IMG/VR virus record: IMGVR_UViG_3300029787_000003
Span: 37,218-101,217 of that record
DNA length: 64,000 nt
Direction: 5' to 3' (one strand)
Source: a virus
Shown here: positions 37,190 through 50,257 of the stretch, in pieces
Layout: each line of letters starts with the position of its first letter
Position numbering within the stretch: position 1 is the stretch's first letter
Notes under the pieces: generated by a model
The model's input: the letters and a program-made list of their open reading frames with translations, nothing else
Database searches by the model: none
What the model was told of the DNA's origin: nothing
Translations under genes and position numbers: made by a program

Positions 37190-37270
37190 GTCGTGTCTGA
37201 CCTTGACCTAGCCCCATCATCATATGAACCACCTGATGATGTACAATTACAAAATAACAGAGGTACACAA

Positions 37271-45265: not shown

Positions 45266-45580
45266 ATGTCTTTATACACAAAACACAATATTCCACTAAC
45301 AGAGTCACAAATTTCGATAATTTGTTATACTTTAGAGGATTATATGGCCAGAGGATCAGGCAATACGTCAAGTGACCCTGACTTACCTAAAGAAGTTGAT
45401 GATATCATTGAACTCTTAGAGGGAACTGTTGATAAGTATTATGAAGAGTTAGAAAAGAAGAAGGCCAAGCAACCTACTATGGAGTGGGATGATGGATTCA
45501 CTCATTATAGTGAGTGTGTGGATAAATTGGTTGATGATATGAACAGTTCAGAAAGTGTCACACCTGGCCTTACAGACTGA
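45266..45580 (+). CDS. Hypothetical acidic protein
   Basis: Track ORF; TATGAT at 45234. Confidence 0.6.
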   Translation: MSLYTKHNIPLTESQISIICYTLEDYMARGSGNTSSDPDLPKEVDDIIELLEGTVDKYYEELEKKKAKQPTMEWDDGFTHYSECVDKLVDDMNSSESVTPGLTD

Positions 45581-47337: not shown

Positions 47338-47745
47338 ATGTATGAACCTGAGGTCAATGACTACGTTATATGGACTACACAGTTGGGTCAGGTACATGAG
47401 GGATGGGTATATTGGAAGGGAGATCCAATAGAACCTAAAAGAGGATGGCCAACACCAACTGATTATATCACTATAGAGATAGGAACTAAGGAAAGAGAAG
47501 TATGTGAATACACAGTTGATAAACCAGTTAAGCATAAGAAACATCATATATGTTTGTTGTGTTATAAACATCAATGGAATGAACTGAAATTTGTAAGGAA
47601 AAGAGTATCTAAAACAGACAATCGTGATCCTAATGAACTGACTAAAGAGAACATAAAGCAACAGGAATATACAGATTATGATAGTCCTGAGAACCTAAGT
47701 TATGGTGCATATAAGAGTCAGAGACACAGATACATAGATCCTTAA
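47338..47745 (+). CDS. Hypothetical protein
   Basis: MYEPEVNDYVIW...EGWVYW...YITIEIG. Confidence 0.7.
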   Translation: MYEPEVNDYVIWTTQLGQVHEGWVYWKGDPIEPKRGWPTPTDYITIEIGTKEREVCEYTVDKPVKHKKHHICLLCYKHQWNELKFVRKRVSKTDNRDPNELTKENIKQQEYTDYDSPENLSYGAYKSQRHRYIDP

Positions 47746-47828
47746 CGGAAATGTATCAGGCTTTGATACAAAAAGTATCTAAAAATAGGTTTTAAATGGC
47801 TTTATAAATATAAAACTGTTAATTATCT

Positions 47829-47930
47829 GATTCTCAATAAGCATCTGTTATTGATAGTCAATAGTGTGTATTATTGATTCTCAATAGGTATCTAATATTC
47901 TCATAAGCATCTCTTAAACATCTCATAAAG
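47829..47930 (+). repeat. Cluster of ATTCTCA(A)TAAG-like direct repeats in an AT-rich non-coding region
   Basis: Copies at 47829, 47876, 47897 and 47920; further copies at 48484, 48507 and inverted at 48526. Confidence 0.6.
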
Positions 47931-48078
47931 GGTCAGATCTTATGCAAGTTTAGCGAGCGTAGCATGAGACGAGCGTTTCGTCAAGGCCACGGATCGAAAT
48001 TTTCCCAGAGAAGGCAGGTTTTATGTGTATTTCGTTACATTATAAGCACTTATAGTATAAATATACTACATTGTGTTG

Positions 48079-48115
48079 ACTACGAGATCTTTACTACGAG
48101 ATTTCACTACGAGAT
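48079..48115 (+). repeat. Three tandem ACTACGAGAT repeats (iteron-like)
   Basis: Copies at 48079, 48093 and 48106; more (Y)ACGAGAT variants out to 48343. Confidence 0.75.
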
Positions 48116-48117
48116 AC

Positions 48118-48146
48118 TTGACAATCTAGTCGAGATCATGTATAAT
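48118..48146 (+). promoter_or_regulatory. Consensus sigma70 promoter
   Basis: TTGACA-17 nt-TATAAT immediately after the repeats. Confidence 0.8.
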
Positions 48147-48182
48147 CATTATATACAAAGCTCAATTCTCTACTAGATTCTC

Positions 48183-48335
48183 ATGGAAGATTACGTTTGG
48201 GACTACGAGATCTCCTGCCACGATCTCGACGAGAATTACACATACAATATGCAAGATGACATGCATGATCTCGACGAGGAATACGCACGAGATTCATACA
48301 CATACACAGAGCTTGCATATGTACATTATGCGTAA
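48183..48335 (+). CDS. Acidic, Tyr-rich micropeptide, 50 aa (MEDYVWDYEISCHDLDENY...)
   Basis: Hand translation; downstream of the consensus promoter; internal HDLDE repeat. Confidence 0.5.
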   Translation: MEDYVWDYEISCHDLDENYTYNMQDDMHDLDEEYARDSYTYTELAYVHYA

Positions 48336-48402
48336 TACGAGATATGTGTACATTCACGTACATACATAATGATACATTCGTACTAGACACACACATTCCT
48401 AC

Positions 48403-48460
48403 ATTATAGCACGTGGGTCATGTGATGGTGCATGGTGTGTGCAGGTTTATGAGGTGTCAC
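48403..48460 (-). promoter_or_regulatory. Palindrome-box promoter module, leftward
   Basis: Minus strand: GTGACAC-CTCATAAA-CCTGCAC, 30 nt, TATAAT. Confidence 0.55.
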
Positions 48461-48623
48461 AACCTCTTTTTTTATTTCTTTTCATTCTCAATAAGGATTC
48501 GTTATTGATTCTCATTAAGTTTTTGTTATTGAGAATGTTACTTAGTGTTGCTAATAATATTTCATCGCAGGGGCCGTGACGAAGATTTTATAGTTCGTAC
48601 CCCCGAACTTTTTTCATACCTTT

Positions 48624-48681
48624 ATTATAACACCTCGGCCGACCTTTTCAACCAGCTGAGTGCCACTAATTTAAGTGTCAC
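48624..48681 (-). promoter_or_regulatory. Leftward promoter sharing the palindrome of module 8
   Basis: Minus-strand TATAAT (48629-48624) 30 nt from the palindrome; TTGAAA 16 nt upstream of it. Confidence 0.6.
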
Positions 48682-48717
48682 ATGAAATCCCCATTCGTGG
48701 TGGATCTGGTTTATATT
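48660..48717 (+). promoter_or_regulatory. Palindrome-box promoter module 8
   Basis: GTGCCAC-TAATTTAA-GTGTCAC, 30 nt, TATATT. Confidence 0.7.
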
Positions 48718-48723
48718 AAGTGT

Positions 48724-48942
48724 ATGGAAAATTTTTTAACGATCAACGGGAAATCTTATTCTCACAAACAGATAAATCTGATTCGTGATTTTTTCACGGA
48801 CGATCAGTGGACTGTCATAGACGGTGCGTTGAGTGAGTTCAAGGATCATGATCCAGATTATCTTGAGGAGGTCTACGGATCTGAAAACATTCTCACGGAA
48901 ACTTTGGATATCATCTCTGAAGTTTACCGTAGTGCCTACTAA
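48724..48942 (+). CDS. Small acidic protein (MENFLTINGKSYS...)
   Basis: ATG immediately after the promoter, so probably leaderless or nearly so. Confidence 0.65.
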   Translation: MENFLTINGKSYSHKQINLIRDFFTDDQWTVIDGALSEFKDHDPDYLEEVYGSENILTETLDIISEVYRSAY

Positions 48943-48990
48943 CAAACTGGCACACCACCTCTTGCAAAAGAGGGCGGCCTAGATTATATT
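48932..48990 (+). promoter_or_regulatory. Palindrome-box promoter module 9
   Basis: GTGCCTA-CTAACAAA-CTGGCAC, 31 nt, TATATT; TTGCAA 17 nt upstream of the -10. Confidence 0.7.
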
Positions 48991-48995
48991 AGAAA

Positions 48996-49077
48996 TGTGG
49001 CAGGATCTATCGTAGTTATGACACGGTTGGATTTATCCGTAAAAGATACCGTTAGGATCATAGAACGTAAGACCACA
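48996..49077 (+). ncRNA. Candidate structured leader RNA
   Basis: TGTGG/CCACA, TCTAT/ATAGA and ACGGT/ACCGT nested stems. Confidence 0.4.
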
Positions 49078-49100
49078 CGCAAACCACACCACAAAAACAC

Positions 49101-50210: not shown

Positions 50211-50257
50211 CAGGCTGTCCACTATAGCCCCATTCGTGATGCGTTTGGGGTTATAAT
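50200..50257 (+). promoter_or_regulatory. Palindrome-box promoter module 12
   Basis: TGGCCAA-TTAACAGG-CTGTCCA, 30 nt, TATAAT-AAGTATGTA. Confidence 0.7.

Follow-up and report, generated by a model that had tools for sequence, protein, structure and literature searches.

A candidate two-way early promoter with a predicted leftward non-coding RNA in an uncultured marine T4-like cyanomyovirus

The early genes of the cyanophages Syn9 and P-TIM40 reportedly carry a novel regulatory element, and the middle genes are said to lie under host-like promoters. In bacteria, one dimer of the CRP family can serve two divergent promoters. Three promoter types are known for cyanomyoviruses, and how the transcription programme starts in T4-like cyanophages, which are devoid of Alt, Mod, MotA and AsiA, is still unclear (PMC2984593). 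The PeSL cassettes of phages RB49 and phi1 contain sigma70-like promoters with both a -35 and a -10 box and an AT-rich upstream tract; the words 'bidirectional' and 'antisense' do not occur in the paper describing them (Arbiol et al., 2010; PMC2839356). At the level of RNA, CfrI of S-PM2, a phage non-coding RNA that is antisense to protein-coding genes, is the sole experimentally shown cyanophage antisense RNA named in the reviews consulted (Millard et al., 2010; PMC2984593; PMC12197685). Here, we describe a palindrome with a -10 box at the same distance on either side, which lies in a window of 64,000 nucleotides (nt) corresponding to positions 37,218 to 101,217 of the IMG/VR virus record IMGVR_UViG_3300029787_000003 (all coordinates below are those of the window unless another sequence is named). 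We regard it as reasonably probable that this is a two-way early promoter, which directs a non-coding RNA from its leftward side (promoter PL1) and is accompanied by a second leftward promoter (PL2) giving antisense transcription. We know of no report of such two-sided use of one element together with a conserved leftward non-coding RNA.

The record holding the window is 152 kb long with an estimated completeness of 73%, and the + strand carries almost all genes. We assign it to an uncultured marine T4-like cyanomyovirus because its baseplate wedge protein shares 65% identity with its counterpart in Synechococcus phage S-SKS1 and 57% with the counterparts in P-SSM2 and P-SSM5, and because a PHROG search of the window proteins returned T4-like matches. 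Within this genome the palindrome belongs to a class. An iterated position-weight scan of the entire 152 kb, with the -10/palindrome matrix trained on rightward copies only, recovered 20 rightward copies of a module scoring 33.9-49.6 bits, almost all of which are located at 33-54 kb of the window. The module consists of CCASTT-N4-AASTGG with an adjoining (C)CAC, a spacer of 32-35 nt, TATAAT and then AAGTAyAT (also A(A/G)GTAyAT), after which there is usually a ribosome-binding site and then the start codon (ATG) of a small gene; most of the rightward copies are without a -35 box. A pattern search gave 11 loose matches where 3.5 were expected. Judged by this distribution, the palindrome is the general early-promoter element of the phage, a point missed by the sequence-only reading, an earlier annotation made from the letters of the window. 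To our knowledge, CCASTT-N4-AASTGG bears no resemblance to the consensus of NtcA, CRP, LexA or the sigma54 -24 box.

The label 'early' is one that we infer. The element that Doron et al. 2016 reportedly described, which may or may not be the same motif, would be like the present one in lying upstream of small early-region genes and in replacing the canonical -35 box; the scheme would also be alike in that one genome has host-like TTGACA/TATAAT promoters and TATAAATA late boxes as classes of their own. In Syn9 a related element lies upstream of gp55, 63, 68, 73, 75, 78 and 79, which are small genes of the syntenic region; at gp55, 63, 68, 75, 78 and 79 it takes the form ...CCAGTT..AAGGTG(G/T)(C)CAC and stands about 30 nt upstream of a -10-like box, and a strict scan for CCASTT-N4-AASTGG (at least 10 of the 12 bases, with a -10 box at 32-34 nt) gave no hit in positions 1-100 kb of Syn9. 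The intergenic region studied here contains the early dyad module, a TTGACA-17-TATAAT promoter and two T4-late-like TATAAATA boxes (47805 and 48056), so that the three known cyanomyovirus promoter types meet in it. Two side observations concern the class as a whole. First, the CCCCATTCGT box recurs at 50228-50237, so that it occupies the spacers of two early promoters, and it is also present in the homologous promoters of three relatives (L007, L019 and L038; L numbers designate comparison loci) and of many metagenome loci, which points to a sub-class of early promoters. Second, the palindrome at 45543-45558 is accompanied on the minus strand by an exact TATAAT at 33 nt, with a total of 23 bits, inside the coding region of the upstream gene.

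The copy at 48660-48681 differs from all others in the genome in the full score of its second -10 box. Its palindrome scores 25.7 bits when read on the + strand and 23.0 bits on the minus strand, and is separated by 30 nt from a hexamer on each side (48682-48711 to the rightward TATATT; 48630-48659 to the leftward box, which reads ATTATA on the + strand), or by 33 nt if the distance is counted from the core 16-mer instead of the edge of the 22-mer. The rightward promoter, at 43.4 bits, falls well within the class in both score and geometry, although its site was part of the training set. PL1 reaches 41.5 bits, made up of 23.0 for the palindrome and 18.5 for the -10 region, and hence also lies inside the class range; nowhere else on the minus strand of the 152 kb does a -10 region score as high as the latter value, the runner-up having about 11.3. 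The minus-strand partners of the other palindromes total 14-28 bits, leaving this as the one copy of about 20 with a full-scoring -10 box on both sides. The sequence-only reading had singled out the palindrome, the two flanking -10 boxes and a TTGAAA 16 nt upstream of the leftward one, and every coordinate proved correct on re-reading, the leftward box having in addition a TGn extension. Since the TTGAAA is found in only about half of the lineages, it is best seen as an accessory feature.

Evidence for two-sided use also comes from relatives. Both hexamers are retained in close relatives at 99%, 86% and 82% identity. For a wider sample, we scanned ocean metagenomes with a pattern from the conserved block inside the RNA core described below, which yielded 64 loci, 52 of them distinct over the region. 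Among these 52, the PL1 hexamer is ATTATA in 50 and ATCATA in the other two, and it stands exactly 33 nt from the 16-mer in 49, while its distance to the hairpin downstream ranges from 7 to 21 nt; accordingly, the hexamer is positioned relative to the palindrome. When the PL1 spacers are clustered at 75% identity they form 16 families with a mean pairwise identity of 48%, and the hexamer is invariant among their representatives. A fixed hexamer distance across such scrambled spacers is the signature expected of a promoter that uses the palindrome, and the symmetric -10 box of the earlier annotation has held up across the lineages. Promoter scores are also obtained for the palindrome in either direction in most of the 36 non-identical metagenome loci with enough flank. 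In L038, which is 75% identical, there are two palindromes, one located 33 nt from the leftward -10 box and the other spaced as usual from the rightward promoter; in this relative, the rightward promoter is placed to drive an inserted gene. Cultured P-SSM2 (NC_006883) has the same module between PSSM2_098 and PSSM2_099, scoring 45.0 bits leftward and 33.5 bits rightward, with its leftward -10 box at 66556-66561 and a predicted start 7 nt downstream, near 66549. Taken together, these comparisons lend good support to a two-way promoter architecture. The coordinates of the features are collected in Table 1.

Table 1. Features of the two-way promoter region and its surroundings, in window coordinates.
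Feature	Coordinates	Strand	Remarks
Dyad-symmetric upstream element GTGCCACTAATTTAAGTGTCAC, 22-mer	48660..48681		Arms GTGCCACT / AGTGTCAC match at 7/8 positions
Core 16-mer CCACTAATTTAAGTGT	48663-48678		Flanked by GTG/CAC; common to both divergent promoters
Rightward -10 TATATT	48712..48717	+	CCCCATTCGT box upstream at 48689-48698; 43.4 bits, site in training set
72-aa gene MENFLTING..., putatively early	48724..48942	+	phrog_35733; relatives found
PL1 -35-like TTGAAA	48646..48651	-	TTTCAA on +; 16-nt spacer
PL1 -10 TATAAT, TGn extended	48624..48629	-	Predicted start near 48617; promoter scan 11/12
5'-proximal stem-loop AGUUCG-GGGGUA-CGAACU	48592..48609	-	Also listed by the scan as a + terminator-like site
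Candidate small non-coding RNA R1	48548..48617	-	Leader, stem-loop, core AAAAUCUUCGyCACnnCCCCUGCGAU, A/U-rich tail
Inverted 12-nt repeats CATTCTCAATAA / TTATTGAGAATG	48483..48537		24-nt-period copy between them
Degenerate dyad GTGCAGGTTTATGAGGTGTCAC of PL2	48439..48460		Palindrome part 16.0 bits; right half doubles as + terminator stem
PL2 -10 TATAAT, TGc extended	48403..48408	-	30 nt from 22-mer; predicted start near 48396
Intrinsic terminator GAGGTGTCACAACCTC + T7 of the 50-aa gene transcript	48451..48473	+	Terminator scan
50-aa acidic microprotein gene, PSSM2_098 homologue	48183..48335	+	Conserved in 9 fetched relatives
Host-type promoter TTGACA-17-TATAAT of the 50-aa gene	48118..48146	+	12/12; converges with PL1 and PL2

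Directly downstream of PL1 lies a motif that is predicted to fold. It comprises a 5-bp stem, a 6-nt GGGGUA-like loop and then AAAAUCUUCGyCAC..CCCCUGCGAU, with a near-invariant core of about 45 nt across the metagenome collection. The hairpin at 48592-48609 occurs with at least seven different stems, four of its five pairs covary, and eight G-U pairs are valid on the minus strand alone; the consensus fold has -11.0 kcal/mol on the minus strand versus -6.8 on the plus strand. A covariance model of this candidate RNA, R1, finds a single copy in its own genome (93.4 bits at 48548-48629 on the minus strand, a sequence that is itself in the seed alignment) and recognizes P-SSM2 at 60 bits and the more distant L008 at 48 bits, with no hit in positions 1-100 kb of Syn9. 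A megablast of the region against cultured phages gave no match, and a distant blastn search matched the RNA core alone, in P-SSM2, P-SSM5 and a single-cell virus. No Rfam family matched over the 64 kb at gathering thresholds, and permissive thresholds over 47700-48800 gave chance matches to microRNA models alone (E > 0.5); a tRNA and tmRNA gene search found none. A search for trans targets of the core within the phage genome returned AT-rich chance words only. On the strength of the covariation and the conserved core, a leftward small RNA is likely, in keeping with the earlier suggestion that the leftward transcripts could be non-coding or antisense.

Further candidates on the leftward side were rejected. 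A second helix, UCGC/GCGA, in the RNA core shows no covariation and is broken in L008. The same annotation had listed, as the most that leftward transcripts could encode, a 9-aa peptide and a dubious 71-aa open reading frame (ORF); both exist and the doubt was justified, in that the ATG of the peptide is lost in 3/4 close lineages, with a 4-nt deletion removing it in L003 and L004, and the 71-aa minus-strand ORF is the antisense shadow of the conserved 50-aa gene on the + strand. The inverted repeats at 48483-48537 lie in the path of the leftward RNA and form a 12-bp stem in the minus-strand transcript; their place in other lineages is taken by further dyad elements with leftward -10 boxes. 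More widely, the cassette of the 50-aa gene is flanked on both sides, at 47825-47910 and 48480-48540, by clusters of inverted TCAATAA/TTATTGA repeats whose period is 24 nt. One additional 24-nt unit is present in L004, and in L019 a TCAATAA/TTATTGA pair stands directly upstream of each of two early promoters.

The alternative that survives best, though we think it unlikely, places a small RNA (sRNA) on the + strand, running from a promoter TTGAGA-18-AATAAT (48529-48558) to the hairpin at 48592-48609 and its U-run as terminator, with the leftward TATAAT as a by-product of the AT-rich tail. The scan does list the hairpin as a + terminator and scores that promoter 10/12; TTGAGA, AATAAT and their 18-nt spacing are kept in L038 despite a change of the spacer; and the G-T pairs in a few of the extended stems are of the type allowed on the + strand. 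However, the T-run past the hairpin is poor in many lineages (e.g. TCATACTTCT and CTCATACACAT), neither a -10 nor a -35 is constant from one lineage to the next in the AT-rich box upstream of the block, and ATTATA keeps its rigid 33 nt to the palindrome while wandering relative to the hairpin. Moreover, the eight core-stem G-U pairs would be A-C mismatches on the + strand. As the G-T pairs of the extended stems favour now one strand and now the other, they were left out of the evidence.

The second leftward promoter, PL2, is a degenerate copy of the module, and the proposal that it has the same 30-nt geometry was confirmed at 48439-48460 and 48408-48403. The homologues of its dyad in L081 and P-SSM2 are good palindromes (CAGGTTTATGAACTGG / CAGGTTTATGAATTGG). 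The PL2 hexamer is invariant in close relatives with a spacer of variable sequence and equal length, and the spacing is lost in L038. As would be seen for a cis-antisense promoter, PL2 is on the opposite strand just downstream of a gene, 61 nt past the stop of the 50-aa gene, points into that gene, and is conserved: among 48 unique loci carrying the 50-aa gene, 26 have an exact leftward TATAAT 33 nt from a palindrome and 40-130 nt past the stop, and in 12 more the hexamer is TAATAT and its distance to the palindrome 34 nt. In P-SSM2-like lineages, we also noticed that the stretch from the 50-aa gene to the RNA block holds 2-3 further dyads, each with a leftward TATAAT 33 nt away. Such stacked dyads are found in L112 (P-SSM2) at 1325-1480 and, upstream of the RNA block, in L049 and L088; in one case the hexamer overlaps the edge of the neighbouring palindrome.

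The region into which PL1 and PL2 point had been taken as non-coding, which does not hold: substitutions in nine homologues of the 50-aa ORF are distributed as 331/256/727 over the three codon positions and indels come in multiples of three, a pattern that marks it as a real gene; it also has its own terminator. The convergence of the leftward promoters on a strong promoter at 48118 does stand; the latter is a perfect TTGACA-17-TATAAT and is conserved in L007, L019 and P-SSM2. The product has the motifs ..WDYEISCHDLDE..YDLDEEYARD..ELAYxHYA (gene region 48076-48335). Three CTACGAGAT repeats lie upstream of the -35 box of the 48118 promoter and TCGAGATC lies in its spacer, and both words recur as codons (DYEI, DLDE) within the gene. 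These repeats are kept in L007 and are present in inverted form in L019 and P-SSM2, which gives them an operator-like appearance. Further to the left, downstream of the TATAAATA late-type box at 47805, the block 47925-47995 (..TTAGCGAGCGTAGCATGAGACGAGCGTTTCGTCAAGG..) is 78-89% identical in the distant relatives L006, L019, L023 and P-SSM2, far above the neighbouring genes; the start of a short ORF in it is lost in L004, and it may be another RNA or DNA element.

On the rightward side, the start of the 72-aa gene is better placed at ATG 48724 than at ATG 48682 of the ORF list, which was rejected as it is ACG in L004, whereas the former is kept. The ATG at 48724 follows the -10 box by only 6 nt and this gap is preserved in L004, L007 and L019, suggesting a leaderless early mRNA; the transcript of this gene is thus probably leaderless. 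The other early genes of the array have leaders of 14-30 nt with AGGAG-type ribosome-binding sites. In L038 (3476-4121), the rightward promoter and the 72-aa gene homologue are separated by an insertion of two extra small genes, which code for 79 and 81 aa and are each preceded by an early-type promoter, in what looks like PeSL-like cassette turnover.

Three other explanations bear on what the two-sided arrangement is for. First, leftward transcription itself might matter and its RNA might not, by boosting or insulating the rightward promoter through supercoiling or a block to read-through. The divergent geometry is indeed conserved, and read-through from the 48118 promoter and the TATAAATA boxes at 47805 and 48056 would otherwise reach the early cluster; nevertheless, this leaves the covarying stem-loop and the near-invariant core unexplained, as well as the fact that one of about 20 promoters alone is two-sided in this genome, and we consider it quite improbable.

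Second, the sequence-only reading had raised the possibility that the leftward RNAs prime replication via R-loops. Phage T4 provides an established precedent in the origins oriF (uvsY) and oriG (gene 34), and the likeness lies in a promoter firing into AT-rich DNA without a protein product. In this explanation the leftward promoters would form R-loops in AT- and repeat-rich DNA and the 1-kb region would be an origin; it is the largest gene-poor stretch of the window, and has two repeat families, an AT-rich tract directly past PL1 and convergent promoters. The cumulative GC and AT skews of the 152-kb record are monotonic without a turning point and are uninformative. Yet, much of the stretch supposed to be non-coding is taken up by a real gene, complete with promoter and terminator, and the ATTCTCAATAAG repeats are replaced by further dyads in other lineages while the promoter and the RNA core persist. 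A simple R-loop primer would need neither the covarying hairpin nor the invariant core, features that point to a folded RNA of specific sequence. The T4 origins, furthermore, use MotA-dependent middle promoters, and cyanomyoviruses are without motA and asiA (PMC2984593); no MotA-type middle promoter is present here, and the RNA, as predicted, is structured and conserved in sequence. Priming of replication by these RNAs appears very unlikely.

Third, and least probable of all, the palindrome might act as a nucleic-acid hairpin (a terminator or processing site, or a PeSL-like recombination hot spot) with the -10 symmetry being incidental, as several modules with GC-rich stem-loops and T-runs between palindrome and -10 box (33145, 36781, 42667, 52050 and 52681) and the palindrome copies bounding the two-gene insertion of L038, as in PeSL-type shuffling (PMC2839356), might suggest, but half-site positions 4 and 13 vary between G and C independently, being complementary in 8/20 copies and non-complementary in 12/20, so that pairing is not maintained, and the fixed 33-nt distance to the -10 box on each side is a property of a promoter. 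The lack of maintained pairing together with this fixed distance favours a duplex site for a dimeric protein, centred at about -53.5, over a hairpin. The earlier notion of an orientation-independent protein-binding site gains support in this way, as the distance is kept on both sides in diverged lineages, each promoter in L038 has a copy of its own, and the half-sites vary independently of each other.

The likeness to PeSL cassettes is nonetheless real in other respects: small orphan genes of a hyperplastic region have early-promoter modules repeated around them, many of which contain a GC-rich stem-loop terminator, and relatives differ by cassette insertions bounded by copies of the module, the stem-loops of the five modules and the insertion in L038 being cases in point. 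What is not found is the sigma70-like pair of -35 and -10 boxes, as most copies have no -35 box and the TTGAAA of PL1 is inconstant; here a dyad at -61 to -46 stands instead of the -35. The arrangement also resembles a divergent activator site, in that a single dyad is equidistant from two outward-facing -10 boxes. It differs from CRP in that its centre at about -53.5 is not the canonical class I or class II position.

Some points weigh against a two-way early promoter with leftward non-coding and antisense RNAs. The early timing is carried over from what Doron et al. 2016 reportedly found and from the similarity to Syn9. The invariance of the RNA core is partly by construction, as 26 nt of the search pattern lie within it. 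No intrinsic terminator is predicted on the minus strand, and in this phage a T-run comes after the hairpin on the + strand, where the promoter-like TTGAGA-18-AATAAT (48529-48558) also faces it. PL2 totals just 15.9 bits here, below the class range, and its hexamer overlaps a repeated TACATTATA motif and is perhaps conserved for another reason. Parts of the region are held in 11 RNA-library runs, and contigs from four runs of three studies cover 48033-48419, 48420-49097, 48445-48721 and 48100-48372; the second and third of these are from two runs of one study, and those of the two other studies extend over the 50-aa gene and not over 48373-48842. These contigs tell neither the strand nor the ends of transcripts and could derive in part from DNA. 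They hence do not decide for or against the promoters, and no conclusion can be drawn from the gaps in two studies.

The sequence architecture, its statistical singularity in this genome, its conservation, the covariation and the coding status of the 50-aa gene are observations; the firing of the promoters, its early timing, the binding of a protein to the dyad and the roles of the RNAs are inferences. With these points in mind, we propose that the early element is a dyad about 53 bp upstream of the start, which would stand in for the -35 box and to which a dimeric factor, either host-encoded or virion-borne, most likely binds. As the site is symmetric, one dyad could serve a -10 box placed 33 bp off either side. 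Rightward, the output would be a probably leaderless mRNA for the first gene of the early cluster. Leftward, PL1 would yield a small non-coding RNA with the covarying stem-loop ahead of the near-invariant core, and the degenerate copy, PL2, would give transcription antisense to the 50-aa gene, which has a host-type promoter of its own. We consider control at the RNA level, early in infection, the likeliest role of the leftward transcripts: the PL1 product would be a structured regulatory RNA, while PL2 would hold back the convergent 50-aa gene, via antisense pairing or transcriptional interference, for as long as the early promoters are active. The opposition of an early-type antisense promoter to a host-type promoter suggests timing control. 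The PL2 transcript would then be of the same kind as CfrI, namely phage-encoded and antisense to a coding gene; it differs in that the CfrI locus, psbA and a homing endonuclease, has no sequence relation to this one and in that the RNAs here are predicted only. More tentatively, we entertain the possibility that phages of the P-SSM2 group make an early structured sRNA from the back of the two-way promoter, the near-invariant core of which would be aimed at some function of the host during takeover, such as one of its mRNAs or an RNA-binding protein, along with an early antisense RNA that times the acidic microprotein.

For the T4-like cyanophages, a dyad that works at a fixed distance in either direction would narrow the search for the factor behind the start of their transcription programme to a dimer acting from about -53, and one site with two outputs would provide a clean test bed for it. 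The leftward output would lengthen the very short list of cyanophage sRNAs, which includes CfrI and the wcaG, manA and glnA motifs. The module is present in cultured P-SSM2, where existing infection systems and RNA-seq data allow a direct test. Finally, the early-type antisense promoter facing a host-type promoter around the 50-aa acidic gene suggests a simple timing circuit.

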